Shown piece by piece: positions 12,673 through 64,000 of a stretch of DNA of 64,000 nt (positions within the stretch are counted from its first letter, which is position 1; each line of letters starts with the position of its first letter). The notes under the pieces were generated by a model that did no database searches, was not told the origin of the DNA, and was given only the letters and a program-made list of their open reading frames with translations. The stretch covers positions 206,832,001 through 206,896,000 of the forward strand of contig OX597814.1 of assembly GCA_951406725.2 (NCBI GenBank). Reading direction: 5' to 3'. This stretch comes from Octopus vulgaris (taxonomy: Eukaryota). The translations under genes were made by a program, and so were the position numbers.

Positions 12673-12727
12673 CTGATGATGCAGCTGAACTACCTGTCGT
12701 GTTTACTTGGAAATATTCTTCAAATTT
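12673..12727 (-). CDS. Exon F: last helix of macrodomain 2 plus linker
   Basis: ttctaacag|AAA TTT GAA GAA TAT ... TCA G|gtaaat; 55 nt, phase 0-1; KFEEYFQVNTTGSSAASS; paralogous to exon B. Confidence 0.8.
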
Positions 12728-18043: not shown

Positions 18044-18080
18044 CTGAAAATAATAAACAAATATCAACATATGTACACTT

Positions 18081-30999: not shown

Positions 31000-31738
31000 A
31001 AAGATGCAGACAGACCACAGCTGTTATCCTGAGACAGCATCATTAGATAATAGAACAAAGAGGCAGGAAGTGAACCAGCAAAAAAAAAAAAAACAGGATA
31101 GTGATGCAGTGCTATTTAGAAAGTGAACCTAAAAGAAGGGGATATAGAAAACGGATGTTAACACGTTGGGTAGAGAAGGGTTTGTTTAAAGTGACTGAGC
31201 ACAGAAATGGTATGAACATGAAGCAGAAGGAGTCACTGAGAACAACGAACATACGATACTGTGGGAATTTACAATCCAATGTGACTCCCTAATCAAGGCT
31301 CAGAGACCAGATATTGTGGTGGTAGATGAAGGAAAAAAGGAAACGAAGATCATAGATATTGCAATAAGTGACAAAGAAGTAGAAAAAATGGGAAAGTACA
31401 CACTACTAAAAGATGAAATTGCGAGAATGTGGACTATGAGGAGAGTGTCTGTCATTCCAGTAGTTTTAAGGACACTCAAAGCACTAGGAACCATGTTGGA
31501 GAAACATGTCAAAGAAATCAGAATTGATATGAGAGCAATGTAAACCCAAAAAACTCCTCTTCTGGGGACTTGGATGTTGAATGTCTCCCATGATAGTAAA
31601 CAACCAAGTATCAAAGCTTATGTGCAGAAAGAGACCCTGTGAGACCTGTCTGCTCTCATAGAATCTACCATAACAAACAAGACTGAATGTTCTGAGAGGT
31701 AAAACAAAATAATAATAATAATAATAAAAGTAATAATA
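31000..31738 (+). mobile_element. Internally deleted Dong/R4 element (N-terminus fused to endonuclease)
   Basis: VMQCYLESEPKRRGYRKRM..W joins at ~31200 directly to KWYEH..EGV.EN..ILW...RPDIVVVD...IIDIA; ends in AAT repeats. Confidence 0.75.
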
Positions 31739-31869
31739 ATCCTTTTCACAAGGCCCGAAATTTTGGGGGAGGGGCCCAGTTCATTAGACTGACCCCAGTA
31801 CACAACTGGTAGTTAATTTATTGATCCCGAAAGGATGAAAAGCAAAGTCGACCTTGGCAGAATTTGAAT

Positions 31870-33110
31870 CGTCATCATCGTTTTATGTCCGCTTTCCATG
31901 CTGGCATGGGTTGGACGGTTTGATTGAGGACTGGTGAGCCAGATGTCTGCATCAGGCTCCAGTCTGATCTGACAGTGTTTCTACAGCTAGATGTCCTTCC
32001 TAACACCAACCACTCTGTGAGTGTAGTGGGTGCTTTTACATTCTACCGGCACGAGGACCAGTCAGGCATTTCTGGCAATGACCACGCTCAAAAGGTGTTT
32101 TTATGTGCTACCTGCATAGGAGCCAGTCTGGCAGCACTGGCAACAACTACGCTCGAATGTTGTTTTTCATGCGCCACCAGCAAATGTGTCAGTAAAGCAA
32201 CACTGGCAACGATCACACTCGAATGGTGCTTTTCACATGTTACCAGCACTGGAGCTAATCTGTGGCCCTGGCAATGATCATACCTGGAAGTACTTTTAAG
32301 GTCCCACGGGCACAAGTGCCAATCAGGCAGTACTGTCATCGGTCACATCAGCGATTTTGCTTTGTTTACACTTGTCTCAACAGGTCTTCACAAGCAAGGT
32401 TTATTGTCCAATGAATGAGGGGTATTCATAAATGGGCTGGTTACACCCACTGGCATAGGCCATGGGCAATGGTCTCACATTGGGTTGTCGGGTCTTCTCA
32501 AGTATAGCATATCTCCAAAGGTCTTGTTCATTTGTCATTGCCTTGGAGAGGCCCAGTGTTCAAAGGCCATGCTTCACTACCTCATCCCAGGTTTTCCTGG
32601 GTCTACCTCTTCTACAGGTTCTCCCAACACTTTTTCACACAGCTGTCCTCATCCATTCACATCATTTAACCATACCAGCTCAGTCGTCTCTCTTGCACAC
32701 CACATCTGATGCTTTTTAAATTCAACTTTTCTCTCAGGGCGCTTACATTCTGTTGAGTATGCACACTGACATTACACACCCAGCGGAGCATGCTGGCTTC
32801 ATTCCTTGCAAGCTTACACATGTCCTCAGCAGTCACAGCCCATGTTTCACTACCATGTAGCATGGCTGTTCATACACATGCATCATACAATCTACCTTTT
32901 ACTCTGGGCAAGAGGCCCTTTGTCACCAGCAGAAGTAGGAGCTCTCTGAACGTTACCCAGGCTATTCTTATTCTAGCAGCTACACTTTCAGAGCATCCAT
33001 CACCACTACTGATGTGGTCACCTACTTGTAGTTTTTCTCCTTGGAATGTGACAGAAGCTGTTCTCTGCACATTTTCAGTGTTTATAGCACCTGAGTATTT
33101 GCCACAAATA
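31870..33110 (-). mobile_element. RTE LINE 3' fragment, older copy of the 6636-9862 family
   Basis: MLHGSETWAV, ERRLSWYG, 3' UTR repeats and ATG tail; the 5' break abuts (AAT)n at 33112. Confidence 0.88.
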
Positions 33111-33115
33111 TAATG

Positions 33116-33179
<64 letters not shown>

Positions 33180-33199
33180 TAAAACTACTGAATAATAAT

Positions 33200-36100
33200 A
33201 ATACCAATACTTTCTTTATTGGCTACCAGGGCCAAATACAAAACATAAAAGTTGATTCACAAACAAGGGACAGTGGGGCTAAATGTGTAAACAGCAAAAG
33301 AAAAAAGACACAATTCACAAGGAGATTAGACCAACAATGATCTTCCCCAATAATGGGGGGTGGGGTTCCACTGAGGAGTGAGCAAAGGAACCACTAACCC
33401 CAACAGTACCTCAGGTAGGTACCCCTCTCTTCCTCATTCCATCTGGCCTACAGACCCACACTTAGAGTAGGCCCATTTACATGGGCCATTCTTGTCACAT
33501 TCACCCACCTTTCAACAAACCTTCTGGGTGACAGCACCTCCCTCTCCAACCTCAATTTCCCTTTCAAATGGAACCTGAAAAAGTCAATTGAGGCCCTTTC
33601 AATCGTGTCCACGATACAACCTTTTTTACCATAGCCACCATAGAGAAAAACTGCCTGTCCTTCCCAGCCAAAGGAAGGAGGTAGAATGATCATGATGGAC
33701 TTGGACGATAGCCAAATCCATCTTCCATGTGACAATAACTGTCTGACAAAGCTCCATAAGTCAGCAATGCATGGACACTGTACGAGAGCATACAGAATGG
33801 TTTCATCACTCCACGTACATCTCAGAGAGGCCCATCTGACTGCACACCTGTGCCTGTAGAGCTTATTGTGAACTGGCAGACCCCCCTGGTAGCACTGCCA
33901 GGTCATGGATTTCAGGAAGTTGTCCATAGGCCCTGGCCCAAAAATCTTCTGAAAGAGACCAGCCAGTTGATCCCTCTCAACGCCCAAAACCTATCTGACA
34001 ATGTTGTACCTCTTGCCCTCCACTAATCCCCTATAGGACTCCAAGGTGGAACTTCCACTGACTGCATCACCCAACTAGCGAAGGGTTGTTAGCGCTTGGA
34101 GACACTCTAGGTGTCAAGCACCCTGCCGTGGTCTACACCGAATCCAGGACTGTCACCCCATCTAGGAGACAATCTATGGAAAAGTGTGTTCAACAAATGG
34201 GGACCACACCTGCTCACTGTTCAGATATTGCTGGAGATGTTGCAGCTTCAGCACATATCTGTGCATCATGAGCAATGGCATGCCCAGTACTCCATGTAAT
34301 GAGTTCTGACAGCAAATGGACCATCTGACAAGTGGTACTCGTCCCTTCCACAAGAAGCAGAAGAGCACGTGCACCAGCCTGTTCAGTTACGAAGCGGGGC
34401 AACGGTCAACAGTCAGGTAGTAGCATATGATGGATGCAATGTATGCTTTCACCACCTCTGCCCAATCTTTCAGAGAAAGCTTCCTCTCAACCCATTTGTG
34501 GTTGAGACTGGTCATCCTGTTTGTCACTTCACCCTAAATCGTATCCACTTGGAGGTCTGGACCAAACCAGACCCCAAGCAACTTAACCAGTTCTTCCATC
34601 CAATGCCCCACAATGTTGTCACTCAGCAAGGGCCTGCCTCTCCAGGTGCTGAGCTGCAGGCCCACTACTTCTGGCTAATCATTGCTCCTGTCATCATGTC
34701 ATATTCCCTTAGGGTAGTGCCAACCATCTTGATTTCCAAGACGTCCAACACTATCACGGTGACATCAGCCGCATATGAACCTTCCACATTCTAGTTCACA
34801 AGGTATGTCCCTCGAAACATCCAACTTCTGCAGCAATGGCTCGAGTGCCAGTACATAGAGAAGTGAGAGTAGGCATCCTTGACAGACTGAACGTGCAATG
34901 CTAAATAATTCCGACATGTAGCCATTTACTTTGACCCCCGAACAGATGTCATTGTACATTGCAGTGAACAAGCCTCTGCAAACAGGACCAAGACTAGCTG
35001 CTTCAAGCACAGTCTCCAAGTACTGATGGTCAACCCTATCGAAAGTTTTCAATTGATCCAAATTGATCAGGGCCCCTCCCATGCCAGGTTCTTTATCAAC
35101 CTACTTTTTGATGAATAGCATGCGGTGGAAGTTGTCATGGATAGAGCTGTTGGGAATAGCACAAGTCTGTGTATCACCCATCAATCGGTAATGACAAGCA
35201 CCAATCTCTTTGCTAAAACCTTAACCAAATTTTCGAAATCTGCATTTAATAGAGTTACAGGCCTAAAGTTATCAACCATGTCACCCTTGTTTGGATTCTT
35301 CTCAGTAGTGCCACCACACCTCAGCTCACAGATCTGGAGATTCTCACATTCTGCCGCCAGTTGCGAAAGACACCCTGCAAAAGCTTACTGAACAAGTCTG
35401 GCATATGAATATAAAGCTTGAAGGGCAAACCATCCAATCCCAGAGACTTCTCCCTCATGCAACTAGCCAATGCAACACATATATCTTCAGCTGTAATTGG
35501 CATTTTGCAGAACTCCACCTTCCTGGATGAAAGCCAGGGCAGAGCATCAAGGGGGAAGTGAAGTTCACCTCCACCTCCACCTCCAGACTACCACATGCCC
35601 CATACAGTTCAGCAAAGTGCCACTGAAATTCTGCACAAATCTGCTCGTACTCATGTAGCATGTACTTGTCTGCACCCCTCCCCCGGAATTTAACAATTTA
35701 CACCTTGGCCACTCAGTGCCATCAAACGGCTTTTGCTCCCTCCTCTTTTAGAACACATGCCCTAGCTCTCACAATGCAACCTTTATGCTTGGTGTTAAAG
35801 AATTGGTTCAGAACCAATCTCGCTGCCAGCACATCGGTCACTATGCCTCTACTGAGTGCCTCCTCCAATTTCTTAACTAGATCTCCCTAGTTCTCTGTAA
35901 AATTTTACAGATTCTACTGTAACCCCATATTTTAGGGCTACTCACCATCAGTTGTTGACAACTGCACCTATCAACTTTCGATGGACCAGCTTGCTAAGTC
36001 AGTCTCTGAAAACTTGATGTGCCAGGAAAGATGTGTTCAGCTTCCAGTATCTGGGACCCTGCCTATGAAGCTTATATAGGTCAACCATACAGATCACAAA

Positions 36101-39558: not shown

Positions 39559-40395
39559 ATAAGAAGTACACTGAGAGTATGTGAACCTCCACCAAGGCAA
39601 CACCAGCGTCCTCTCAACGATTAGCCAGAGATGATTTTTAAAATGAGAATATCTGAAATAAACTCAACTGCTCTCACAAACGAGAATACTAAAAATGAAC
39701 CTGACCTCTTTCAAAAATTAAATTAAAAAAATGGAAAATAATGCAGAATCCTTGTCTGGTACCTGATCAATCCCAATGGTAGTCATGGAATGTGAAGGTG
39801 GGTGTGCAGGCCATATTTGTAATGCTGTGTGTATGTCGTCTGCAGTGGGAACAGGGACAGTTCTCTCTATGAAGGTCCTTTTTAGTTTATCCACTAATAT
39901 AGTGTCTTTACGATCATTAAAGTCTAAAATGAAAATTTTATCCATGCATGAAAGAAAATGGAAAGGACCTGTATACGGTGCTGTTAACAGAGGTTTAAAA
40001 ACATTGTTGCACAAAAAAAGCATGAGTCCAAGAAGTAAAGCTTTCTTCAAGGCAGACCTAGAAATGCAATTGTCAAGAAGGTAAGAGGTTTTAAGCAAGA
40101 GTGATATATTCAAAATTGGTAAAACTGAAAACTTGTCAAGAATAAATTAAATTTATTATTGTTACTGAATATGTTAGTGTTATTTAATTTCTGAATGGTT
40201 TTGCTGCCATTTGTTTATGTAGTTTGATTGCTTTATCCATCAGTTTTGAGTAAAATTAATAATAGAGACACAAAGATAAACCTCTGGAAACAGCAATGCT
40301 GCCATAACTTATGTGGAACCCATGAGCATGCTTTCAAGGGAGATAATCAGAGAAAGACTTGAAAGTCAACGTAAGATCGTAATACTTTAGGTAAA

Positions 40396-41945
40396 TCATC
40401 ATCATTTAGCGTCCGCTTTCCATGCTAGCATGGGTTGGACGGTTCAACTGGGGTCTGGGAAGCCAGAAGGCTGCACCAGGCCCAGTCTGATCTGGCAGTG
40501 TTTCTACGGCTGGATGCCCTTCCTAACGCCAGCCACTCGGGGCTGGCACACGGACATGGACAGATGGTGCTTTTTACGTGCCACCGGCATGGGGGCCAGG
40601 CGAGGCTGGCAACGGCCACGATCGGATGGTGCTTTTTATGTGCCACCGGCAACGGACATGGTCGGGTGGTGCTTTTTACGTGCCACCAGCACGGGGGCCA
40701 GGCAAGGCTGGCAACGGCCATGATCGGATGGTGCTTTTTACATGCCACCGGCACGGAGGCCAGTCGGGGCGGCGCTGGCCATGGCCACTATCGGATGGTA
40801 TGCTTACATGTCACCGGCACTGGTATCACAGCTGCAATTTCCATTGATGTTGATCGACTTCGATTTTGGTTCTGATTTCTGATTTGATTTGATTTCATTT
40901 GATTTTCAATTTCCACTTGCCTCAACGGGTCTTCACAAGTGGAGTTTTCAGTCCCAAGAAGGAAAGGTATGCATAAGTGGACTGGCTACATCCAAGGTAG
41001 AGGCCACGGGTACTGGTCTCACTAGTCCTGCCGAGTCTTCTCACGCATAGCATACTTCCATAGGTCTCGGTCTCTAGTCATCTCCTCAGTGAGACCTAAA
41101 GTTCGAAGATCGTGCTTCACCACCTCGTCCCAGGTTTTCCTGGGTCTGCCTCTTCCACAGGTTCCCTCAACCGCTAGGGTGTGGCACTTTTTCACACAGC
41201 TATCTTCATCCATTCTCATCACATGACCATACCAGCGCAAACGTCTCTCTTGCACACCACATCTGATGCTTCTTAGGTCCAGCTTTTCTCTCAAGGTACT
41301 TACACTCTGTCGAGTATGAACACTGACATTACACATCCATCGGAGCATACTGGTTTCATTTCTTGCGAGCTTACGCATATCCTCAGCAGTCACGGCCCAT
41401 GTTTCACTGCCATGTAGCATGGCTGTTCGTACACATGCGTCATACAGTCTGCCTTTTACTCTGAGCGAGAGGCCTTTTGTCACCAGCAGAGGTAGGAGCT
41501 CTCTGAACTTTGCCCAGGCTATTCTTACTCTAGCATTTACACTTTCAGCACACCCGCCCCCACTATTGACTTGGTCACCTAGGTAACGGAAACTATCAAC
41601 TATTTCTAGTTTTTCTCCCTGGAAAGTGGCAGAAGTTGGTCTCAGAGCATTTTCAGTGTTTATTGCTCCTGAGCATCTGCCACATGCAAAAACTATCTTC
41701 CTAGTTAGCCTTCCTTTGACATTGCTGCACCTCTTATGTGTCCATAGCTTACACTTGGTGCATCTTATAGAGTTTCTACCTACACCTTTTCTACAGATCG
41801 AGCAAGGCCATCTACCTGAAGGCATTTGTAATTTGTCTACCTTACTACTTATTAGGACTTTGGTTTTAGCTAGATTGACTCTAAGGCCCTTCGATTCTAA
41901 TCCTTGCTTCCACACCTGAAACTTCTCCTCCAGTTCTGATAGTGA
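40396..41945 (-). mobile_element. RTE LINE, 5'-truncated, intact C-terminal ORF
   Basis: ORF 41022-41915 is nearly identical to 7678-8772; 3' UTR minisatellite; (ATG)n tail. Confidence 0.93.
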
Positions 41946-42179
41946 AGTAAATATAACGAATAATCCAGAATCTTTGTCTGGTACCAGATCAATCCCAAAG
42001 TCTAATCAGTTCCTGCCAGTCATGAGACCAAACATCCCTGAAAGTTTCATATGAATCCATAAAGCAGTTCTTGAGATATTTGTCCATGGTCAAAGAAACA
42101 AACAAACATGACTGAAAATAATACCTCTACCTTCGCTAAAGTGGAGGTAATAATAACAATAATAATAATCATAATAATG

Positions 42180-43440
42180 ATAAATATATATAAAACATTC
42201 TATGAATATATAGCAAACAGTTCAACAGTTCCAAACAAAAGAGGGACTCACAAAAACCAAAGCCATCCCCATTAGAAGAGGAATATTCCAGGGAGACACA
42301 CTCTCTCCACTTCTTTTTTGCTTGGCACTGACATCTTTACCTAACATGCTAAACAGAACTTGATGCGGATACAACTATTACAGCCAAACAATATATGGAT
42401 GACCTAAAAGTGTACACTACACATGATAAACAGCTGGAAACATTACTACAGACAGTACATGGATTTACCAAAGAAACTAATATAAAATTTGGCTTACAAA
42501 AATGTGCCAAAGCAACCCGGAAAAGAGGAAAACTAGTTAAGAGTAGCAACATCACACTAGATAAAGCAAATGAAATAAGACAATTATACCAAAGCCAGAT
42601 ATACAAATATTTAGGAATCAATGAACTAGATATGATACAACACACACAAATGAAAGAGATAATATAAAAAGAATACTATAGATGAGTTAGATAAATACTG
42701 AAAACAAAGCTCCATGTGAAAAGCAAGATAATAGGTATTAACACTTTAGCCATTCTTGTTATAAGTTACAGCTATGATATATCCTTAACTGGACTCTAAA
42801 TGAACCAATCAAAATAGACTGGAAAACAAGGAAAACTGGCTAAGAAGGAATATATTTACAGATACGACAGAGTTGGAACTTATGTACACTGGAAGCTATG
42901 CCAATATTATGGAATAACAACAGAAAAAAGATGGTATAAGCACACACCAGAAATGGTCACAGAAAACGAGAAAGCAACCATACTCTGGGATATGCCAATA
43001 CACACAGATAGAGAAATTAAAGCCGACAGACCAGATATAGTTGTCAGAGATCATGAAGAAAAAAAATGCTTTCTAATTGATGTATCAATACCAGCAGATG
43101 ACAACGTGTCTCTAAAAGAAATGGAGAAACTCTCAAAATACAAAGACCTGGAAATAGAGGTAACCAGAATGTGGAATCTAAAAACAGAAACAATTCCTAC
43201 CATAGTAGGTGCATTAGGCATGATAAAAAAAATATTCAGACAAATACATAACAAAAACACCAGGACTTACAAACACATAAAACATACAGAAAATTGCACT
43301 ACTAGGCACTGCACACATCCTACGCAGAACACTTTCAATACAGTAAAAATAAGAGCATCAGAACAAACCACAGCACACATCCAAGGCATACAGGGCTGCG
43401 TTGGGTAGTACAGTGAAAGCACGTTATAAAAATAAGGCTA

Positions 43441-43445
<5 letters not shown>
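42180..43445 (+). mobile_element. Dong/R4 family C copy, 5'-truncated, ~0.6-kb internal deletion near 42836
   Basis: Aligns to 9925-11757; the RKTRK region is fused to LAKKEY; (AAT)n on both sides. Confidence 0.9.
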
Positions 43446-43481
<36 letters not shown>

Positions 43482-43534
43482 TAATAATAATAATAATAAT
43501 AATAATATTAATAATAATAATAAAAATAATAACC

Positions 43535-45022
43535 AACCATTTGTTATTCATGGATGAATTCAAACTTTATGGTAAAGATGAAGCCCAAGTCAGTTCCCTT
43601 GTTGATATGGTGTATAATTTCAGGGTTGATATCAGAATGGAGTTCAGACTGAGAAAGTGTGGTGTGTTAGTCTTGAAGAGAGGCAAAATCAAATGTATGG
43701 ATGGGCTATCAATCCATTTAAAGCCGAGCACTTATACAGACTGAGTCTGTATAAATCTTATTCTGACTGTTTAATTTTGACTTAAGGATCCTTAAGTCAA
43801 AATTAAACGGTCAGAATAAGATTGAAGCTATGAACACTGGGGTGGTTTCACTCCTAAGATGCGGAGCAGGGGTAATCACATGGACAGTAGGTGAGCTAAA
43901 CAGCTTAGACAGAAAGACAAAGAAGTTACTAACTACGTATGGGCACTCTGCACAAAAAGTGACACAGACAGACTATATGTAAGAAGAAGAAAAAGAGGGG
44001 GAAGAGGACTTATTGGATGCGAACACAGCATTAGAGCAGAAGAAAACAACATAGCATGGTATGTAAGCAATGCTATGGAACTGCTATCATTGGAAGTAAG
44101 AAGGTCAGGCTTGTGTAGGATGGAAGATTGTAAAGATAAAGCACCATACAAGAAATTGAAAACGAAGGAAACTGAAAATAGGTGGATAAAGAACAGAATG
44201 CATGGACAATTTCATAGGGATGTTGAAGATAAGACAGACAGAGAAAAAAGATGGCTGTGAATGACTAAAAGTGATTTAAAACCAAAAACGAAGACACTAA
44301 TCTGTGCTGCCCAAGAGCAAGCACTAAGAACAAACTACATAAAATACAGAATAGACAACACAGCAGAAAGTGATAAGTGCAGAATCTGTGGACAAAATGG
44401 TGAAACCATATGCCATATTACCAGCCAATGTATGCTACTAGCCCAGAAGGAATATAAGAGACACCATGACAATATGGCCAGGCTTGTCCATTGGACACTT
44501 TGCAACGAGTGTAGACTTGACAGAACAAAAAAATTGGTACAACTACACACCTGAAGGCATCGTCGAAAATTGAAATGCAAAGATCCTATGAGATTTTATG
44601 ATTCAGTGTGACCATGAGATAGAGAATAGAAAGCCGGACATAGTCTTAATTGAGAAAGAAAACAAACTATGCTGAATCATAGACATAGCATGCCCAGCTG
44701 ACAACAAGGTATGCGATAAGGAAGAAAGAAAAGTCATTAGGTATGACAGGCTAGCTTGGGAAGTTAAGCAGTTGTGGTCGATGAAAAAGGTAGCAGTGGT
44801 ACCAATAATTGTCGGAGCCCTGGGAACAGTGAAAATCTTGAGAAGTACATGGAATAAATAGGGGCTGCAATAAGGGTGGAGCACCTGCAGAAAACAGCAC
44901 TGTTTGGAACCGATCGAATACTGCAGAAGGTGCTCAAAAAATTAGAGGTGTTACCTTAGTTCACAGGTAGTGAACAGCTGACACTGTAGCACATCTCCAG
45001 CATTAGGAGCTGTGCAAAGGCA
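43535..45022 (+). mobile_element. Dong/R4 family A copy
   Basis: Aligns to 70-1500 (EHSIRAEENNIAWYV, MTKSDLKP, DIACPADNKV); (AAT)n on both sides. Confidence 0.9.
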
Positions 45023-45039
45023 ATAATAGTAATAATAAT

Positions 45040-46270
45040 ATTCTCTTGAAATCAAATCTCAACTTAGTGCCATCAGCATATGGGCTGTTGCTGTAGTTCG
45101 TTATAGTGCACCCCTATGGAGATGGACACAAGATAAGATTGAGCAACTCGATCACACTACCCGAAAGACAATGACGATGCATGGTGCCCTCCACCCTTTA
45201 GGAAAATGGACACAGGCTCTACATGAAGAGAGGTAAGGGTGGACATGGGCTGATTAGCATATGGGAGTGCATCAACGGTGGAAGAAGAAACATGGTAGAA
45301 TATTTGGTAAACGGCAAACAAGACTTGCTACAGTATGCTGCTAGTGCACAAGGAGTTAACAAAAGGAACTTGAGGGTAATCAGGAATTCTGATCACGAAC
45401 AGCCGACGAGAGAGAAGAAACCCTACTCCGTATGGAATTGCATGGTCAGTTCCACTGTGGAACCAACAAATTAAAAGACAAAGAAGCATCATAGAATGGC
45501 TCAACAAGGGTGACCTAATCAAAAATACTGAAAGCCTAATCATTGCGGCCCAGGACTCAGTGAAAAAGAATATATACCACACAAGTGCAACGGATCTCTG
45601 AAGAATGTGTGGGAAGAGAGTTGAAAGTGTGACTCACTGTTAGTGCTTGAGAAAGTCTTGCGCAGGAAGAGTAGAAGCGTAGACACGACAAAGTAACCCA
45701 AAACTGGCTACTTTGCCATAAGTATGGATATGAGGTTATGGGTGCTTGGTACCAACATACACCAGAAAAAGTAATGAACGAAAAGGGGAAGGCAAAAATC
45801 CTCTGGGACTTTGATTTCCAGACAGACAAAGTGTAAGAGAACTGAAGGCCAGATATAGAAACCTTTAGGAGGGACAAACAAGAGTGCCAAATAATCGATT
45901 TGGCAGGGCCAGGAGATCAACACATCATCATGAAATAAAGAGAAAAAGGTTGATAAATATGGAAACCTGAGAATTGAAATTGCTAAGATGTGGCAGGTAG
46001 AAGAGTCGAACATAAAGGTTATCCCTATTGTCATCGGAGAATTGGGTTCAATACCATCCAATCTGAAAAAACATCTGAAGTCCTTAGAGATACCCTGCAA
46101 TCTAGATGTATTGCAAAAGTCAGCATTACTTGGAATTGTGTAAAGTATTGTCTGCCTGAGGTCCATTTTGTGACTTGACAAACACTGCAAACCCCGAGTA
46201 GACACAATATCTTGGATCAACAATCTCACGATATTGTATACTGTGCGACATTTATAACAATAATAGCAAT
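45040..46270 (+). mobile_element. Dong/R4 family G 3' fragment
   Basis: MHGALHP, GGHGLISI, ESLIIAAQD, RHD, ILWDFDFQTD, KYGNLRIEI, LQKSALLG; AAT arrays on both sides. Confidence 0.8.
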
Positions 46271-46271
46271 C

Positions 46272-46321
<50 letters not shown>

Positions 46322-46347
46322 CATTAATCATTAATAATTAATAATAA

Positions 46348-46722
46348 TCATCATCATTATTTAGTGTCCGCTTTCCAAGCTAGCATGGGTTGGACCATTC
46401 AACTGGGGTCTGGGAAGCCAGAAGGCTGCACCAGGCCCAGTCTGATCTGGCAGTGTTTCTATTGCTGGATGCCCTTCCTAACGCCAACCACTCCGTGAGA
46501 GTAGTGGGTGCTTTTTACGTGCCACCGGCACAGGTGCCAGACGGGGCTGGCAAACAGCCATGGACGAATGGTGCTTTTTACGTCCACCGGCACAGGGGCC
46601 AAGTGAGGCTGGCAACAGCCACGATCGGATTGTGCTTTTTACGTGCCACCAGCACAGAGGCCAGTCGGGGCGGTGCTGGCAACGGCCACAGTCGGGTGGT
46701 GCTTTTATCGTGCCACCGGCAG
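46348..46722 (-). mobile_element. RTE 3' UTR/tail fragment
   Basis: Matches 40396-40760; embedded in AAT repeats. Confidence 0.85.
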
Positions 46723-46832
46723 GGAATGATAATAATGATAATAACATTAATCATATTTATAATAAACAGTGTTTAATAGAGACGGTATGACAAAACACCA
46801 TAATATTCAATATTAAGGAACAAATTGTTTAC

Positions 46833-46914
46833 CTTTTGAATGAAATCTTTCCTTTTCCTGTTTATCCATCATTCCTTCATTTTCGTCTTTATTTAGGAGA
46901 TATTCTTCAAATTT
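46833..46914 (-). CDS. Exon B: last helix of macrodomain 1 plus linker
   Basis: ttttacag|AAA TTT GAA GAA TAT ... AAA G|gtaaac; 82 nt, phase 0-1; KFEEYLLNKDENEGMMDKQEKERFHSK. Starts with the same KFEEY as exon F; phases match exon A and exon C. Confidence 0.8.
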
Positions 46915-47127
46915 CTGTAAAATTCAAAATAATGAGGTTACATTTTAGTAATAGGGTAGTTTAAACAGACCTGGTTCACCATATTATATTAAAAGACTAT
47001 TTTCTATTTCAAGGGACAGTGTAGGTGTGTTTTGGGGGGGAGTAATGTGGAATTGAAAAGAAACTTTTGTTTCTCTTTCAAATATCAATGATTTGGGGGA
47101 TTGGTCTTTAGAGGTCAGAATGGTGTG

Positions 47128-47129
<2 letters not shown>

Positions 47130-47180
<51 letters not shown>

Positions 47181-49560
47181 GTGTTTGTGTTTGTGTGTGA
47201 GGGCCGCTTTTGATTGGTCCCAGGGTTTATTGTGGTGTAAATAGGTGTGTCTGTGTGTGTTTTATATTTGGTAGGATGGTGTGTGTATATGTGTGCCCAT
47301 TTGTGTGTGTGTATGTGTGTGTGGTTAATGTTTGTTAGTGTGTTGTGTGTGCACTAGTGTGTGTATGTGTTTGTTCATATGTGTGCATCTGTGGGTGCGT
47401 GTGTATTCTTGTGTATTTTGTGTTGGTGGGGATGTTATATGTGTGTAGGTGAGTGTGTGTGTGTGTATATGTGTGTCTGTATGTGCGCGTGTGTATGTTT
47501 GTGTGTTTTTTTGTGTTGGTGGGGATGTTATGCGTGTGTATATGTGAGTGTATGTGTGTTGTGTCTGTTTGTGTTTTAAATGTCCTTGTGGTGTGTGTGT
47601 GTGAGGGTGCATATGTATGTGTGTGGGTATGTGTGGATGTGTATGCGTGTGTAAGTGTGTTGTATTTATCAGGGGCTCTGTGTGTCTATGTGTGTTGGGT
47701 TTATCTGGGTGGTGTGTGTGTGTATGCGTTTTGTTTGTGTTGGTATTGAGTATGTGTTTGTGTGTGTGTGTGTGTTTATATATGTGGGTATGGTTTATGT
47801 AGTTCTGTATTTTCCGGGTGTGTGTGTGTGTACATGTGTCTGTTGCATTTGTGAGTGATTTGTTTTGTTTGTATTGTTAGTGCAATGTGTGTGTATACGT
47901 GTAGGAGTGTTTGTGTGGGTGTGTTCAGGTGTCTTGTATTTGTCAGGGAGGTGTGTGTCATTGTGTGTGTGCATGGTTGTGTGTATGTATGTTTGTGAAT
48001 GTTTGTTGTGGTTGTAATGTGCGTGTATGTGTATTTTTTCTTTTGAATGTGAGTGTGTGTGTGTGATTTTATTACTGGGGTGCGGGCGTATTGTATGTGT
48101 GTGTGTACAGGTGTGTGTAAATGCGTGTGTGTTTGTGTGAGTTGTGTTGTAGTTGCATGTTTGTTTGTGTATCTGTGTGTGTGTTTGTGTGAATGTGATT
48201 TGTAATTTCGGGGTGGTGTGTGCAGGTGTGTGCATATCTGTGTTTACATATGTGTATATGTGTGTGTGAGTGTTGGTTATGGATGCTAAAATCTTATTGC
48301 AAGTGTATGTGTATGTGCGTTTTTCCTGGGATGTGTGAGGGTTTGTGCTCAAGTGTGAGGATATTGTGCTTGTGCAAGTGTATTTGCATCGGAGGTTGGC
48401 ATTGTTTTTGTGTGTGTGTGATTTTGTATATCTGTATGTGTTTCTGTATGTGTTTGTTTTGGATGTGTACCTGGGGGGTATGTTAGAGTATGTTTAGTTG
48501 TGGTCTGTATTTTTGAATAAGATTATTTTCCCTATTTATTTGTGTTTGGTCAGTGGTGTTGTCTGGGCATTGGTATAGTGGAAAACTAGGAATTCGGGGG
48601 ACTTGTTGTGTGCACAGAGGTCTAAGTGTCCACTTAGTGGTATCTGTCTTGTGGTGGGGTCCCTCAGTTGTTGTCGGTGAACTGTCATCCTTTCTCTGAG
48701 GGTAGTCTTTGTGGCACCCTTCACACCTTATGATATAGAGTAAATTTTTTGATGCACAGGTGAAAGTATTTTTTATGACAAAGGTGTGTTCCGACTGGAA
48801 TTTGTACACTGATCCTTCAATGAGATGGATGCAAGTCCTGCAGTTGGAACGACCACATTTTTTGACGGTGGGTGGTGAGTTTGTGTTGTGTAATTTTGCA
48901 TTGTGAGTAGGTTTTTTAGGGATTTGGGTTGTATTTTACTTTTTATTATTTTACGAGTTGTGAGTAAATTTTTTAGATGTGGGTCTTGATTTAGCTGTGG
49001 AATGTTGTATATAATTGTGTAAGCTTCTGCATTTCTTCGATTGTGTGTTGAGAGACAGGGGAGGCTATTTACTGTACTGTGGATGTGTTTTGGTTTTCGT
49101 AAGTCTTGGGTGTTAATTGATTTGGCCCGTTCTATTCCGTTGTCCACTAGTGATGCTGGATAATGTCTTTTGAGAAGAATTGCCCTTAGTTCCCGGAGTC
49201 TTCTATTTCGTGTTGTGTCATTTGAGACAATTGTGCAGATTCTTCTTGCTAAGTTGAAGGGGATATTTGTCTTTGTGTGTTTTGGGTGATTGGAGGTGAA
49301 TAGAAGGTATTATTTAGAGTCAGTGGGTTTGTAATGGATGTCAGTTTCAATGTTGACGCCTTTTTTAATGATTAGAATGTCAAGAAAAAGGAGTCGGTCC
49401 TGACTATAATCCATTGTGAATTGGATGTGGTTGTGTACACTGTTGATAAAGTTTTTGAAGTCAATAAGCTGGTTGAGTGTGTGGGACCATAGGATGAGGC
49501 AATCATCTAAGTACCATTTCCAATTCTCCAACAGGTATTTGTGGAAAGATACAATACCAA
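47130..49560 (-). mobile_element. Penelope-like element (RT C-terminus + GIY-YIG) with a ~1.3-kb degenerate (CA)n-rich 3' tract
   Basis: WYLDDCL, IQFTM, FLDILI, YKPTDS..YL...S.HP, FTCASKNLLYIIRC..C, LRERMTVH; TG-rich tract at 47130-48480. Confidence 0.85.
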
Positions 49561-50009: not shown

Positions 50010-52732
50010 TATGTGTTTTGGTATTGGCAACATGACTGACAATGGTCAGAGACTACTTGAATTTTGCACATACCATAACCCGTGCATCACCAACACATTC
50101 TTTGCCAGAAAGACATCCCACAAGTCATCTTGGAGACATCCAATATCTCACCACTGGCATCAGCTGGATCTCATCATTACACGAAGATTCTTTGTGAATT
50201 CTGTTCAACTGACCCGTAGTTACTACAGCGCGGATTGTGACACAGATCATTCACTAATAAGAAGCAGGGTGAGGATTCTACCTAAAAAAGTTCATCACTT
50301 CAAGAAAATGGGCCAACCACGCATTAACACTGCCAGAACCTTGGACCCTACACTGCGAAAATGTTTTGCTGTTTCTATCAAGGTTGCCCTCAGTAGCTGC
50401 CCAACCTCCTCTGCTGAAAGTAGGTGGAATTATATCAGGGAAGCTTTGTATACCACATTAATAGATACTTTTGGCATGAGAGAAAGGCAAAACCCAGATT
50501 GGTTCAGTGCTGGGCTCTCAGAGCTGGAAACAATTATCGAAACAAAGCGTGCAGCTCTGATGCAATACAAGAGTGATTCTTCTATAAAGTCACTCGAAGA
50601 ACTCAGAAAGGCAAGAAATAAAGCCCAACTGACAGCCAGACACTGTGTAAATAGGTATTGGCAGGAAATCTGTCAGAGTATCCAGTCAGGTTCTGACAGT
50701 GGTGACACCCGTGGGATGTATGCCAGTTTGAAGAAAGCCCTTGGTCCATCCGCAACCAAGTCAGCCCATCTGAAATCAACTACTGGAGATCTCATCAAGG
50801 ACCAAAGCAAGCAAATGGATAGATGGGTGGAGTACTACCAGGATTTCTACTCACGGGAGACCACAATAGCTGAGGCTGCAATCGAGGGTGTCAAGATCTT
50901 GCCAGTCATGTGCGAACTTGACAGTCTGCCATCTATAGCAGAGCTCACCAAGGCTATTGACACCCTAGCAAGTAACAAGGTTCCGGGAAAAGACGGCATC
51001 CCCTCAGAGATCATCAAAGCTGGCAAAAACACCATCCTGATTCGGCACCTTCATGAGCTTCTGTGTCAGTGCTGGGAAGAAGGTGCAGTCCCTCAGGATA
51101 TGCAGGATGCTAACATCATTACGCTTTACAAAAACAAAGGTGACCGTGGTGATTGTAACAATTACCGCAGAATATCTCTTCTAAGCACTGTTGGAAAGAC
51201 CTTTGCTCGCATTATCCTGTCCAGGCTACAATTGCTTGCTTCTTGAATTTATCCAGAATCACATTTTGGCTTTAGAAGAAGCAGATCAACTATTGAATGA
51301 TATTCTCCATATGCCAACTTCAGGAGAAGTCCAGAGAGCAGAAAATGCCATTATATACGGCCTTCATTGATCTGACAAAGGCCTTTGACTTGGTAAGTAG
51401 AAAAGGCCTCTTCATCCTGCTCCAAAAAATCAGATGTCCACCAAAGCTGCTGAGGATCATCAAGTCTTTCCATGATGATAAGCAAGGCACCATACAGCAC
51501 AATGGTTCAACATCAGCCGCCTTCCAAATAAAAAATGGGGTAAAGCAAGGTTGTGTCCTTGCTCCTACATTATTTGGCATCTTCTCGCTGCTGCTGTCAC
51601 ATACCTTTGAGACATCAGACCAGGGAGTGTTTCTGCACAGTAGAAGTGATGGGAAACTGTTCAATCTCTCTCGTCTGCGTGCCAAGACCAAAATCAGAAG
51701 TGTCCTCATCAAGGAGGTGCTATTTGCTGATCATGCTGCTCTGGTATCACACACAGAAGAAGCCCTACAAAGGCTCATCAACTGTTTTGAGCAAGCATGT
51801 AGCGACTTTGGATTAGTTATCAGCCTCAAGAAGACCAACATCATGGGTCAGGCTACATCGGACATCCCAAACATATATATTGGAGACCACAGATTACAGG
51901 AGGTGGAGAAGTTTATCTATCTTGGCTCTACTGTCACCTACAACCTATCTCTTGATGCTGAGCACTATATACGCATTGGCAAGGCAGCTGCTGTGATGGC
52001 CCAACTCTCCAAACAGGCATGGGACAACAATAAGCTGACCAAGACCACAAAAATGAAGATTTACCAGGCATGTGTACTTAGCACTCTCCTGGATGGAAGT
52101 GAGACTTGGATGCCATACACACGCCAAGAGCGTCGTCTAAATATCTTTCACCTGCGCTGCTTCCGGGAAATCCTTCGCATCAAATGGCAGAATCATGTCC
52201 CCAACAAAGATGTCTTCAAGCAAGCAGGAATAGCAAGCATGTTTGCACTCCTCACACAAAGACGTATGAGATGGCTTGGACATGTTAGCCGTATGGAAGA
52301 TGGCAGAATCCCCAAGAACATACTCTATGGAGAGCTTGCTAGGGGCACTAGGTCTGTGGGAAGACTATTCTTACGATAAAAGGATGTTTGGAAAAGGGAC
52401 ATGAATGCCTGCAACATCAATATTAGCAAGTGGGAAGCAGTTGCCAGCAACCGTAGAGATTGGCAACGTACCTTAAAGAGGGGACACAAAGAAGTGACAG
52501 AGAGAAAGAGGTGAAATGGAAAAACAAGAAAAGACGTCAACAAGAAACTATGACATTACAACCAGCCAGGCAAAGTCTTCGCTACGTTTGCGGCGTCTGC
52601 CAGAGGGGGTGTTTGTCCAGGATAGGACTACACAGCCACAGCAGGAGATGTATTAGGACATGAAATGTAAAAGCTGGACTAGATTATGCACAACTCCATT
52701 GTCTCCCGAAACAAAAAGGATGCCAACAACAA
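50010..52732 (+). mobile_element. RTE/BovB-like LINE (APE remnant, RT, C-terminal C2H2-like finger)
   Basis: NGQRLLEFC..ITNTFF..WRHP..WHQLD, DCDTDH, NYRRISLL, FIDLTKAFD, GVKQGCVLAPTLF, FADH, RMRWLGHV, CGVCQRGCLSRIGLHSH; short 3' hairpin and (CAA) tail. Confidence 0.92.
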
Positions 52733-55142: not shown

Positions 55143-55756
55143 GTGAAAGACCAAAATATTGTTGTGAAAGACCAAAACAATAAAGTCTGTTTATTGATTG
55201 ATGTGAGCGTACTTTGTGACTATGATGTCTCAGCAAAAGAATTTGATAAACTCAGAAAATATAAAGATCTGCTGATTGAAATCGAAAAGATGTGGCATCT
55301 CAAGATGGTTACAATACCAGTGACTGTAGGAGCACTTGGAATGATCAAAAAAGGAACTGAAAATTATTTAAGAATGATCCTTGGCTTACCATCCATGCAG
55401 GAGGTGCAAAAGATTGTCTTAACTGGTAACTGGTCACACGTATTGAGAAGAGCATCGTTGCTGTGAATTTTCTTTCTTTTTTTCCCTTTATTTTCTTTGT
55501 TTATTTTTAAATTTTTGTTAAGATTGTTTTAACTGCCACATCACACACACTGAGAAGAGAATTGCCACTGTGAATTTTATTTCCTTTTTCCTTTTATTTT
55601 CCTTGTTTACTTTTTTTTTCTTTTTTCCCCTTTTTTTTATATGACTTTGTAAATGGTGTGTTTATTTTAATGGCCTACCACATGTACAAAGTGAACTTTT
55701 TTGTCCTAGATGTTGGGAAGACACTTGGCAAGGAATGGAAATGAAATTGAAAGAAG
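55143..55756 (+). mobile_element. Dong/R4 family B 3' end, near-identical to 5870-6465
   Basis: Roughly 10-15 differences over ~590 bp by eye, including the 3' UTR. Confidence 0.9.
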
Positions 55757-56360
55757 ATAATAATAATAATGATAATAATAATGCAGTACCAGGCAGTGGC
55801 TCTCGTAGCTTCTGATCTTAACTGATTGGAAGTATTATCATGTACATTGTTTTGTCTTGGTATGAAAGATGGGCTGCAGCAAATATTCTGCTCAAAACCA
55901 CAGATTTGCTTGTCAGTTGTTTGACCATAACCAGTTGGGTATGTCCCTTAGTGGTTGACGATATGTGCATCTCTGATCACAAGCAGAAGTAGTGGGGGAG
56001 CATCATAGCCATGTGTTGAAAGGGAATTTTGGGGGTATTGAATAATTCACCTTTGGAAATATAAGTGTTTCATTCAACATCCTTAAACAAATCTTATTCA
56101 GTAACCTTTTGAGCTATATGGGCTTCTTGATCTGAAGAAATTTCTAACTGAGCCCTACCTGCAAGGTCATGTGCTTTTTATCTTGATATGAGATCACCAT
56201 GTCATGCCCATATGGTTGTGATGCATGTGTCTGCTGTACCTTTATCAGACGGATAGTCATGATGGGTATATTGGGCTTCGTATATTTGTACCCTAGTATC
56301 ATTTTGATGACATACACTGCCCCCTCACTTACTCAATAACAATAATAATAATAATAATAA

Positions 56361-59300
56361 CGGGGGACGTTTTAAAGAACACTGTGGACGCTTAAAAGAA
56401 CACTGGGGATGTTTAACATGTAAGAGCGATAAAATACTGCTCCGAAATCTATCCAAAAACAAAAGAAATAATGGCATCACATAAAGCCAAAAAATAGCTG
56501 ACAAAGGATTGGACTATATCCGAGTAAGTAATACTCATTGAAATTTATTTCTATTTTCCAAATGAAATGATGTATTTTAATTGGATATCACCTCCATTGC
56601 TCGCACAGCACATGTAAACATGCTCGCTACATTACAATCCCATGAACACCAGGCCATCTCCGTCCCCAAATACCATGTAATTAAATAATACTGGTATTAT
56701 TCAGCCCAAAGATAACAAATGGGAAGAATGTACTTTAAACTTGTTACACAAAAACTATGAAAAACTACACGCGCAAAACAATTTGACAACAGAAATGAAC
56801 GGAGTGGTACCCTACAAAAATTATGGCTGTCAAAATAAAGGGCTGGACGTTCCTCATGTCCTGCAGATAAAACTAAAAAGGCATAAATAGACACATGGGC
56901 AATATATATCAATCCTACACGCTTACTTTACGGCAGTGATCTACCCAAAGAACGAAAACACAACAACATATACATATAAAACATGGAAGCAAAATAACAT
57001 AAATAAAGATCTGGATACAACAATTAACCCTAATAAACTAGCAAATATACGGAGATATATTCTCAACGCAAAAAAATATCAGAAGTAGAAATAGAACATT
57101 TAAAAGAAAAAATACATCAGGAAAATGTAGATAGAAGCCACACAACAATGCCAAATATGAACACTGAGATAGTAAAACACGAAGACAAATGTAACATTCC
57201 CAACAAAAACGATGTAAACAAAAAACAACAAACCCAGACCGTAGGGATGTATAATAATGTATGAAAAGCAGCAAACTAAAACACGACAGACAAACATACG
57301 AATGAGAAAGAAAGTGAAGAAAATCTAAAACCTGTAAACAATGAAGGGGAACCTAATGATTATGATACTATAAAAATGAGAATAATCAAAGAACTGAAAA
57401 CCACAGATCTCAAAATTGACCACCAACCATACCTTCCAAAAATCAAAATAGACAAAAAAACAACATCAATTATAAACAGCATAAACCTGGCCGTCACAGA
57501 ACTAATAGCCACTGAAACAAAAAGCGATATCACTGAGCTAAATGACATAATATATGCAGCAGCCGCTGCAGCCACAAAAGAAGTTGGATACTCCCTCAAA
57601 CCCATCCAAACAGGATTACCACCACCCAAACAAACCCTGTGGATAAATATTATCAAAAAAAAAAAAATAAATAAATAGAAAAATAGAAAAGATCTGTCGA
57701 TTCTTAACGAAATTAGTTGGTAATCAACACTACTATGTAACAAGAAGAGAACAAAAATACTGTGCAAATACAACATTACAGAAAAAGATTTACCTGAAAT
57801 AAAAGAAAAGCTAAAGCAAGATATCCTTGCCAAAGCACAAAGGATCAGCCGGTATGAGAAACGTCAACGTTTCTTTGAACAAAACAAACAGTTCAACTCC
57901 AACCCCAAAAAGTTCTACCAAGAACTTGGCAAAAATAAAATAGATATTACTGCAGCACCAATGGTAGAAGAAGAGGAAGAATTCTGGAGATAAATATGGT
58001 CGTCAAAAGAACAACTACAGAAAAGGACTATTACAACAACAAACTTAGCACCTGAGCAACTCTGGACCCCCATAAGAACTGAAGAGGTCACCCAGGTACT
58101 GCAAAGACTAACCAACTGGAAGGCACCTGGGCATGACAAGATCCCCAACTTCTGGTTGAAATATCTGACAGGAATACACAAAAAGCTGGCTGAAAACTTT
58201 AACAACATACTGGCAGAGCCAGAGAAAATGCCTGAATGGCTCACGGAAGGGAAAACTATCTTAATTCTCAAATCTGATGACACGGCAAAACCACAAGACT
58301 ACGGACCTAAAACCTGTCTGCTACAATGTACAAAAACCTTTACTGCAGTAATATCGCAGAGATTGAACAAGCATCTGGAACAAAACAACCTGTTTCCAGA
58401 AAAGCAGAAGTGATGCTGCAAGGGCTCATATGGCTGTAAAGATCAATTAATGATCAATAAAGCCATGACTGAAGACAGCCACAGAAAGAAGAAAGGCCTC
58501 GGTATGGCCTGGATTGACTACCAAAAGGCGTTTGGTAGTATGCCCCACACGTGGATCCTCGAAACACTAGCCATGAACAAGGTAGCACCAATAATTATAA
58601 AATACATAAGACTCTCTAAGAATAAATGGCAGACATTGCTACAGCTCCAAACAAAAGAGGGACTCATGAAACCAAAGCCATCCCCGTTAGAAGAGGAATA
58701 TTCCAGGGAGACACGCTCTCTCCACTCCTTTTCTGCTTGGCACTGATACCTCTATCTGATATGCTAAATAGAACTGGATGCGGATACAAATGTTACGGCA
58801 AAACGATCAGCCACCTTTTATATATGGATGACCTAAAACTATACGCTACAAATGACAAACAGCTGGAAACACTACTAAAGACAGTTCATGGATTTACCAA
58901 AGAAATAGATATGCGCCAAAGCAACCCTGAAAAGAGGGGAACTAGTTAAGACTAGCAACATCACACTAGATAAAGCCAATGAAATAAGAGAATTAGACCA
59001 AAGCCAGACATACAAACATTTAGGAATCAATGAGCTAGATACGATACAACACACACGATGAAAGAGAAAATAAGGAAAGAATACAATCGACAGGTTAGAT
59101 CAATGCTGAAAACAGAGCTCAATGCTAAAAACAAGAAAATAGCTATTAACATTTTAGCCGTCCCAGTTATAAGTTACAGCTACAATATCCTTAACTGGAC
59201 ACTAGATGAACTAACCAAAATAGACAGGAAAACAAGAAAAATAATGACAGGATCTAGGATGCACCACCCAAAATCTGACATAGAAAGGCTATATATACAA

Positions 59301-60466
59301 TGTATAGAAGGTGGTAGAGGCCTTATACAGCTGGAAAACTATTATAAAATAACCACCATAGGACTGCAAAAAATATCTACTTCAGAAGCAAGGAAAACTG
59401 ATACAAATAGCAGCAAAACACGAGCAAAACAAAAATTGTTCTCAGTATTTAAGGAAGGGGGAGGGGAAGAAGAAGAAGAAGAAGAAGAAGAAGAAGAAGA
59501 AGAAGAAGAAGAAGAAGAAGAAGAAGAAGAAGAAGAAGAAGAAGAAGAAGAAGAAGAAGAAGAAGAGCTATAAAACAAATGAAATCCAAACTAAAACTAG
59601 AACAGCAATAGACCATGATAAAACGATGGCAAGAAAAACCCCTTCATAGCAAATACTGGACTAAATTAAATGCAAAAGAAATAGACAGAGAAAAATCCCA
59701 GCAATGGTTGAGAAGCTCAGGACTCAAAGCAGAGACAGAGGGATTTTTAATTGCAGCACAAGACCAAAGCCCCCCCCCCCCCAAGGAATTACCAAAAACA
59801 TGTAATGAAAAGAAATATAACAATTAAATGCAGAATATGTGGAGATGGACAAGAAACAATAAATCATATTATCTCTGGCTGCCCAGTCCTGGCTAAGAAG
59901 GAATATATTCACAGACACGACAGAGTTGGGACCTACATATACTGGAAGCTATGCCAACATTATGGAATAACAACAGAAAAAAGATGGTATAAGCACACAC
60001 CAGAAAAGGTCACAGAAAATGAGAAAGCAACCATACTCTGGGATATGCCAATACACACAGATAGAGAAATTAAAGCCGACAGACCAGATACAGTTGTTAG
60101 AGATCATGAAGAAAAAAAAAGCTTTCTAATTGATGTATCAATACCAGCAGATGACAACGTGTCTCTAAAAGAAATGGAGAAACTTTCAAAATACAAAGGC
60201 CTAGAAATAGAGGTAACTCGAATGTGGAATCTAAAAACAGAAACAATTTCTATCATAGGTGCATTAGGCATGATAAAAAAATATTCAGACAAATACATAA
60301 CAAAAACACCAGGAAAATTGCACTACTGGGCACTGCACACATCCTACTCAAAACACTTTCAATACAGTAATCATCAGAGCATCTCAACAAATCACAGCAC
60401 ATACCCAAGGCACAGAGAGCTGTGCTCAGGAGTGAAGTGGAAGCATGCTATAAAAAAATAAAACTA

Positions 60467-60470
<4 letters not shown>
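56361..60470 (+). mobile_element. Dong/R4 family C, near full-length, decayed
   Basis: Starts right after (AAT)n; NWKAPGHDKIPNFWLK, AWIDYQKAF, GIFQGDTLSP, YMDD, CCHC, RLE; same 3' UTR as 11660-11757; (AAT)n from 60470. Confidence 0.93.
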
Positions 60471-60520
<50 letters not shown>

Positions 60521-60739
60521 GGTTTCAAATTTTGCCACAAGAGTAGACATTTTGGAGAGGGGATGTGATGATTACATCAACCCCAATGTTCAACTGGTAC
60601 TTAATTTATCAACCACGAAAGGATGAAGAGCAAATTTGACCTCGGCAGAATTTGAACTCAGAATGTAGCAGAAGACAAAATACTGCTAAGCATATCGCCC
60701 AGTGTGCCAACAATTCTGCCTGCTCACCGCCTTAATAAT

Positions 60740-63320: not shown

Positions 63321-63581
63321 CAAATTTTAGGGTTAATTTTGCATGTTCAAATTGTGCTTCTCTCTATTGTACAGAACTCTCTAGAGATAAGAGTTGAAGA
63401 AAACCAAGCTAACCTACGAATATTACTGAACAATTCTAAGACATCAATAAAGGATCCCATATTTCATTTTATTTTTTAATTTTATTCCATATTTTATTTC
63501 ATCATAGAATTATTGGGGGTGGAGAGGGTAAATTCCAAAAATATCAACATCAAACAACAAACAACAAAAACATCAACCAAC

Positions 63582-63809
63582 CTTTGCTATTTTTTTGTCT
63601 TCTTGAGGTAAAACAACAAAGTAAACATCTTTGATCTGGCTTGAATTTTGATCTGAGTAGTTTTTCACTGCTTCATACATTGTTCTGGGTAGTTTTTCAA
63701 TGGGGTACTTCATTTTAGCCCCTAAAATAGGAAATGCCAGGCTTTTTGCTCCCATTCTCTCAGCATTTTCCAGACAAGTGGTTATTATTTGAGTCAAGTT
63801 TGCCAGAAT
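63582..63809 (-). CDS. Exon A of a PARP14/PARP9/PARP15-like multi-macrodomain gene: C-terminal half of macrodomain copy 1
   Basis: Acceptor tttattag|ATT and donor AAG|gttggt; 228 nt, phase 0-0. Translation ILANLTQIITTCLENAERMGAKSLAFPILGAKMKYPIEKLPRTMYEAVKNYSDQNSSQIKDVYFVVLPQEDKKIAK carries the macrodomain S(I/L)AFP.(I/L)G motif. Paralogous to 16559-16786. Confidence 0.9.
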
Positions 63810-64000
63810 CTAATAAAAAATAATTGTTTAGTAATTGATAATGAACATTTTATTAAGTTATTTTCTTATTACAGGAAGAAACCATTAAGTTGTAATAAAT
63901 ATATCCTCCTCTCACAACTCCTCTCACTCCTACCACTTCTAAACACAACTGTCATTCCTATCACTCTTTAGTCCTGCAAGGGATAAGGCAACCTCACTCA

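Follow-up and report, generated by a model that had tools for sequence, protein, structure and literature searches.

Here we describe a family of at least 51 macrodomain modules in the octopus genome, whose introns have probably (we put the chance at roughly three in four) been kept 96–97% alike by continual gene conversion, with selection preserving or reshuffling divergent patches of exon sequence near the predicted ADP-ribose-binding loops. Two of these modules lie in a single PARP14-like gene that crosses the window (the whole 64,000-nt stretch of Octopus vulgaris DNA analyzed here). The initial annotation of the window had noticed that an exon differs far more between these two copies than the introns on either side of it.

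Two homologous modules in one gene

A single homology tract of 1553 nt (93.4% identity; the alignment includes neighboring DNA) joins positions 63527–65076 and 16504–18053. Each copy contains three exons on the minus strand, A (137 nt), B (228 nt) and C (228 nt), and two introns of 281 and 611 nt. The identity first seen inside the window continues past position 64000 to 65076 versus 18053, spanning all three exons and both introns, and no alignment of the pair was found past the other end of the tract, at 63527 and 16504. Mapping of P0010, a protein of 1336 aa, over the region places both copies in the same gene as its second and third macrodomains, hereafter modules 2 and 3.

Module 2 extends beyond the window with exon A (64930–65066), intron 1 (64649–64929) and exon B (64421–64648); its intron 2 (63810–64420, 611 nt) lies within the window at 63810–64000. 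Exon C (63582–63809) comprises 76 codons with AG/GT ends and a short loop 2 from which one codon is deleted. It matches residues 848–923 of P0010 at 100%, and its Pfam Macro match is weak when searched alone (E = 0.016). The following 55 nt (63527–63581) begin a large intron and end the homology tract. Module 3, likewise on the minus strand, consists of exon A (17907–18043; linker and first macrodomain strand), intron 1 (17626–17906, 281 nt), exon B (17398–17625; 76 codons including loop 1; Pfam Macro E = 2.3e-12, best PDB matches to human PARP14), intron 2 (16787–17397, 611 nt) and exon C (16559–16786; long form of loop 2; Pfam Macro E = 8.6e-6; 100% match to P0010 residues 1073–1148), followed by the 55 nt common to both copies (16504–16558).

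The two modules are linked by a spacer exon, D (46833–46914, minus strand, 82 nt, phase 0 to phase 1), located by tblastn of P0010. Exon D closes a repeat unit A-B-C-D that is frame-symmetric according to the splice sites, and the introns on either side of it (~17 and ~29 kb) have no shared homology near the exons. A D-like exon of 55 nt after module 3 (12673–12727, minus strand) leads toward the PARP catalytic exons, which lie ~22–27 kb before the window start. The large introns (window 71–12467, 31700–33200, 40395–47400 and 55150–60650) carry dispersed repeats that are 70–97% alike, microsatellites and reverse-transcriptase-like fragments, for example at 50929–51575 and 8593–8826.

Contigs from four runs that we guess to be RNA, which cannot be tied to a single paralogue, contain an exact skip of the 281-nt intron 1 when aligned to the module 2 copy (4 of 4 runs) and splice joints across module 2 intron 2 (3 of 4). 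Members of the module family are thus spliced as modeled. In the sister species, the annotated isoform P0022 connects module 2 exon A directly with module 3 exon B, omitting a whole module. This could reflect genuine modular splicing or an artefact of mapping between A exons whose 3' halves are almost the same. In the last PARP exon of the focal gene (C1:206805233-206805492, L096, ~27 kb before the window) the frame shifts midway and the catalytic domain is truncated, reflecting either a null allele or an assembly indel; the same exon is open in P0009, the sister-species orthologue, and in 16 other copies.

Exon C differs more than its introns

The contrast described initially was recovered on realignment of 63400–64000 with 16377–16977. 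Over 191 nt of intron (63810–64000 versus 16787–16977) there are 3 differences, exon C begins with 10 identical codons in the two copies, and the flank directly after the exon C donor differs at 3 of 55 nt. Exon C as a whole has 10 synonymous changes and two 3-nt indels, and its amino acid changes number 17 or 18 according to where the gaps are put.

Counted per site between 63582–63809 and 16559–16786, 10 of 52.8 synonymous and 22 of 172 nonsynonymous sites differ, versus 6/281 nt in intron 1 and 16/611 nt in intron 2 (pooled, 22/892; Fisher p = 3.3e-6 for synonymous sites against introns). The excess persists at four-fold sites (6 of 25; p = 5.5e-5), which removes the concern that it reflects transition bias. 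Exon B has no significant synonymous excess over the introns (3/52, p = 0.15), and its nonsynonymous sites are in excess (16/176, p = 1.2e-4). The earlier view that positive selection alone is insufficient therefore holds for exon C, given its excess at four-fold sites, but positive selection does account for some of the pattern because the exon B excess is mainly nonsynonymous.

A PARP14-like gene with predicted reader domains

Exon B matches proteins of Octopus vulgaris and O. sinensis labeled PARP14-like at 100%. P0010 contains the Pfam domains PF00644, PF23085 and PF01661, and three macrodomains plus PARP exons map over the window and its flanks. The focal gene is a PARP14-like macroPARP, with macrodomains in tandem ahead of a PARP catalytic domain. 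The family member P0031 aligned with 3vfq at E = 2.2e-21 for the second domain and E = 2.8e-9 for the first, and exon B of the window likewise ranks human PARP14 Macro2 ahead of Macro1; judged by sequence comparison, the repeated module is closest to Macro2.

Macrodomains of the hydrolase type have Asn/Ser and Gly flanking loop 1 and a hydrophobic-aromatic pair in loop 2 (PMC10221186). The repeated modules keep the loop 1 Asn and Gly, but all 45 compared encode Leu or Met at codon C34. Because the loop 2 aromatic residue is absent from all 45, the modules do not appear to be Macro1-type hydrolases and are predicted to be readers, of ADP-ribose or of mono-ADP-ribosylated proteins. The first macrodomain of the focal gene has a Val-Tyr pair, as described for hydrolases.

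Size and distribution of the family

A search of the same genome returned 66 candidates, among which 51 are exon B copies, none with an internal stop; 48 lie on C1 and 3 on C29, and the distance between clusters reaches about 210 Mb. Because a search with the Pfam PARP family did not recover these genes (its 9 matches lie elsewhere), the last PARP exons were sought with a protein query, which found 17. Together with 22 near-full and one partial N-terminal exons, these counts indicate roughly 17–22 genes; the module and gene counts are lower bounds. The number of repeated modules varies, from two in the focal gene to seven in its neighbor.

Left out of the comparisons were 3 of the 51 modules, truncated or incomplete in the fetched stretch, one more for exon C (frameshift) and three for exon A. 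Several variation and recombination analyses dropped one member of each of two near-identical segmental duplicates, and intron 2 statistics cover the 33–35 modules with the 611-nt type.

The neighboring paralogue (C1:206606802-206771764; L067, L010, L003, L012, L002, L004, L006, L017) is on the opposite strand with seven tandem modules. Several of these modules have downstream flanks only 0.4–2% apart yet differ from one another by 6–15% at exon B nonsynonymous sites, which makes this gene the most promising locus for observing ongoing exchange or selection. Some modules have extra partial copies of exon A or intron 1 just upstream (L016, L018, L042, L028), which suggests that slippage or unequal crossover has acted locally. 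Two nearly identical copies of a two-module gene lie ~1 Mb apart (L014/L015 and L016/L018; C1 7.55–7.60 and 8.52–8.57 Mb) and represent either a recent segmental duplication or an uncollapsed haplotype. The N-terminal exon (L066–L087), compared over 18 genes, has pN 0.097, pS 0.110 and very patchy diversity (0.04–0.17 per 60 nt); in the focal gene and its neighbor it is ~200 nt shorter than elsewhere in the family, and 3 of 21 copies contain stops or frameshifts.

Introns are closer than synonymous sites across the family

Over 48 usable modules, the distance is 0.040 for intron 1, 0.032 for intron 2 and 0.11 for nonsynonymous sites; at four-fold sites it is 0.148 in exon A, 0.058 in exon B and 0.198 in exon C. 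Of the 561 pairs that 34 modules form, which are not independent, 550 have a larger distance at synonymous sites than in introns. As a control, the N-terminal exon, which is not tandemly repeated, has a four-fold distance of 0.080 and flanking introns at 0.06. Synonymous sites are thus not intrinsically five times faster in this family, the rate gap being at most modest. CpG decay accounts for 13% of the exon C four-fold differences.

Evidence for exchange between copies

Linkage disequilibrium decays over short distances, with r2 at 0.23 for sites up to 10 nt apart and about 0.06 for those separated by more than 120 nt (permutation p = 0.0005). The genealogies of the segments are largely decoupled: Mantel correlations over 31 modules are 0.03 between the two introns, 0.04 between exons B and C and -0.01 between intron 2 and exon C, and some pairs are weakly correlated (0.21–0.30; exon A with exon C, 0.30; exon A with intron 1, 0.24; also intron 1 with exon B and intron 2 with the downstream segment). 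In intron 2, 0.58 of informative site pairs are incompatible by the four-gamete test, whereas the highest value reached by 100 clonal simulations run on the fitted tree was 0.30. Intron 1 taken alone gave no significant recombination excess (0.38 versus a simulated 95% point of 0.41; linkage decay p = 0.14).

Intron 2 has two unrelated interiors, of about 611 and 820 nt, each 93–98% homogeneous among its carriers, and there are chimeras with the 5' part of one type and the 3' end of the other. Modules c1_8057 and c1_9196 have identical C exons and introns 2 that differ by 4.1%, with a ~31-nt deletion in only one of them. The long identical tracts in intron 2 (up to 333 nt) were set aside as evidence, some being expected by chance at a 3% background, and so was the 76% identity between intron 2 types as a measure of age, which includes a 16-nt gap. 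In L049 (c1_216041), intron 1 is 98% identical, but exon C, at 77% DNA identity, diverges strongly and is possibly a relic of an older lineage.

The contrast seen in the focal pair is real, but the idea of a privately homogenized pair did not stand. Ordered by closeness to module 2, module 3 comes only 17th of 34 at intron 2 and 40th of 46 at exon C. A copy with a different exon A, ~197 Mb away, has an exon C just 2 nt from that of module 2. Because the focal partner is the nearest copy at intron 1 alone and the closest relative of exon C is so distant, homogenization is family-wide. The original proposal of conversion or unequal exchange around an exon core that was protected or swapped in from another paralogue gains support from the distances, linkage and recombination tests across the family, and probably both kinds of core occur.

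Variation and probable selection in the exons

Hypervariable codons include B10, B11, B15, B16 and B18, assigned to loop 1 by alignment to human Macro2, and C32–C35 in loop 2, where 15 of 45 modules have a one-codon deletion. Among exon B variants of the seven-module gene, raw counts are 51 nonsynonymous in 175 sites versus 7 synonymous in 53. The synonymous variants at C24, C30 and C35 are linked to the loop 2 deletion (r2 0.63–0.77), and that at C63 is linked to C62/64 (r2 0.90). In windows, local synonymous diversity was not significantly correlated with neighboring amino acid diversity (best rho 0.22, p = 0.06). A single loop 2 dimorphism does not explain exon C, because the long-loop class is as deep within itself (pS 0.185) as it is against the short-loop class (0.186).

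Between P0009 and P0010, exon B differs at 5 of 76 residues in module 2 and 0 of 76 in module 3, and exon C at 4 of 76 and 1 of 76, respectively; the paralogous modules 2 and 3 differ at 12 residues in exon B and 17–18 in exon C. The differences of P0009 in exon A of module 3 cluster in a 7-residue patch that resembles paralogues. Exons cluster by orthology, at the protein level only, for P0009, P0010 and other sister-species modules, some of which have no close counterpart. The four DNA-like runs were unfit for comparing introns across species because they are too close to the genome.

With regard to an origin of exon variants by RNA editing or from a cDNA template, A>G changes at all sites outnumber T>C in exon B (30/77 versus 14/67) and exon C (34/88 versus 17/58), counts that are confounded by selection and leave too few four-fold sites, and there is no such difference in exon A or the introns. 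A metagenome scan with P0031 for relatives gave 158 pattern matches, 0 of them confirmed.

Duplication, constraint and assembly as alternatives

The data could also be read as a recent burst of module duplication, some 3–4% of divergence ago, then faster exon evolution and import of older patches without steady intron homogenization, which corresponds to the "accelerated evolution" or ASSET reading of snake venoms. Such a burst would account for the skew of intron variants toward rare alleles (singletons 41/95 and 68/133), the star-like intron trees (about 25% internal length) and the mainly nonsynonymous excess in exon B. Outer flanks, of which 0.4–1.5 kb could be compared in most modules (a few had less or no downstream sequence), point the same way where they align: most are 2–8% apart, and because this is less than the exon C synonymous distance, they also fit recent duplication followed by exon import. 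Intron distances, however, do not follow the flanks. Introns are already 2–3% apart where flanks differ by 0.8% and 3–4.5% apart where flanks differ by more than 8% (intron 1, 0.031 in 15 pairs with downstream flanks ~0.8% apart and 0.045 in 19 pairs above 8%), and in 936 of 1128 pairs without an alignable 300-nt flank on either side, intron 1 distance is an unchanged 0.041. Nor does a burst predict recombination and chimeras inside intron 2, and positive selection on point mutations cannot lift four-fold sites to 0.20. The exon import that this explanation requires is gene conversion itself. We therefore regard it as unlikely.

Purifying selection on the short introns, for example on splicing enhancers next to the very large introns or on double-stranded RNA for RNA editing, would make the exon synonymous distance the true age of the modules. 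The edges of intron 2 are in keeping with this, since its first 40 nt and last 50–100 nt are common even where the rest is nonhomologous, as are the 55 nt after exon C; likewise, distances in the introns by the N-terminal exon are a little below those at its four-fold sites (0.06 versus 0.08). About 9 modules, however, have open exons and an intron 2 whose interior has been replaced entirely. Insertions of 0.6–2.6 kb and the ~31-nt deletion are tolerated, intron distances track neither flank nor exon distances, and no inverted repeat that could pair exon with intron in the focal modules was better than E = 0.30. With two unrelated interiors and chimeras between them, sequence constraint is disfavored, and we consider it decidedly improbable.

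Short-read runs with four organism labels, independent of the assembly, have unique flanks within a few percent of the genome, mostly ~1% or less; in contigs of three of these runs, the ones compared, intron pieces of 210–357 nt were collapsed at ~12–27 times the depth of the unique flank, depth being a rough guide. That mis-mapped reads drew the introns to a consensus, or that the intron is a dispersed repeat, is very improbable even though no listed contig spans a whole module and 187 of 227 intron-only candidates were weaker and outside the scored set, since the 40 scored matches are all within macrodomain modules, the paralogous introns are 3–4% apart with private variants, the high depth recurs in independent reads, and the separately annotated orthologue has both domains in order.

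Discussion

Continual conversion balanced by selection on the exons thus remains our preferred explanation. We propose that the 1.55-kb module acts as a homology island in which short conversion tracts would start, and that the introns would drift to an equilibrium of mutation and conversion near 3–4%. Tracts erasing useful exon variants would be selected against, which could explain why older synonymous differences survive beside amino acid differences in exon C. Loop 1 in exon B may have been diversified by point mutation under positive selection together with import of patches. By analogy with vertebrate PARP14, the selective agent is probably pathogen-linked ADP-ribosylation, which would imply a role in immunity.

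A tentative and more far-reaching possibility is cassette exchange throughout the octopus genome, with near-identical introns serving as homology anchors by which hypervariable ADP-ribose-pocket patches are swapped among the ~51 modules, even between contigs, to form a combinatorial repertoire of PARP14-like sensors that would act as immune readers inside the cell. Under such exchange, the repertoire might also differ between close species, and probably between individuals.

To our knowledge, cephalopod innate immunity is poorly described. A family of ~20 PARP14-like genes with ~51 hypervariable modules is a likely site of host-pathogen conflict in the octopus. Its modules form a natural library of macrodomain pocket variants for the study of target specificity, and the family is an unusually large test bed for theory on conversion versus selection, where two copies are usual. 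Gene models, read mapping and dN/dS estimates will be unreliable for these genes unless exchange is modeled.

The mechanism itself is textbook knowledge; its scale, the pooling within and between genes and the gene family appear to be undescribed. Among the main texts of open-access papers, we found no report of the octopus expansion or of macrodomain conversion (PMC9712504 has no relevant mention), and one proteomics paper, in its available text, lists a PARP14-like protein in skin mucus (PMC11431876).

Vertebrate PARP14, PARP9 and PARP15, as outlined in the available parts of PMC10221186 and PMC13224862, combine an N terminus containing RRMs, a hydrolase-type Macro1, reader-type macrodomains and a PARP domain. 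Their macrodomains are under positive selection, clustered duplications are known, with four copies in lancelet, and PARP14 is a fast-evolving antiviral enzyme (PMC13224862). The octopus gene has the same domain order and fast-changing macrodomains, but its macrodomains after the first are Macro2-like and variable in number (2, 7), with ~17–22 genes and signs of continual exchange.

Iterated exon-intron units are also described for the Argiope spidroin MaSp2, whose introns are about 97% alike (PMC9779670, available text). In that account, introns become uniform inside each gene but quickly grow apart from those of other genes, and homogenization extends to the coding repeats, whereas in the octopus introns are common across genes and the coding repeats have diversified. 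In snake venom PLA2, introns are closer than coding exons, and surface segments are exchanged among paralogues by ASSET, according to the accessible part of PMC7285919. Those proteins are secreted toxins, whereas the octopus modules belong to a predicted intracellular ADP-ribose reader, with evidence of recombination inside an intron.

The human red/green opsin genes, as presented in the available text of PMC3924837, have a "peak of divergence" under gene conversion, their introns homogenized and their exons held apart by selection. The octopus family is similar in that introns appear homogenized between paralogues, exons stay separate, and exon identity follows orthology (in the octopus, at the protein level). 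Three of four opsin features recur here: introns closer than synonymous sites, a recombination signal and clustering of exons by orthology. The opsin case, as portrayed there, involves two adjacent genes and two fixed sites, whereas the octopus family involves at least 51 modules, within and between genes and across widely separated clusters, and many hypervariable codons.
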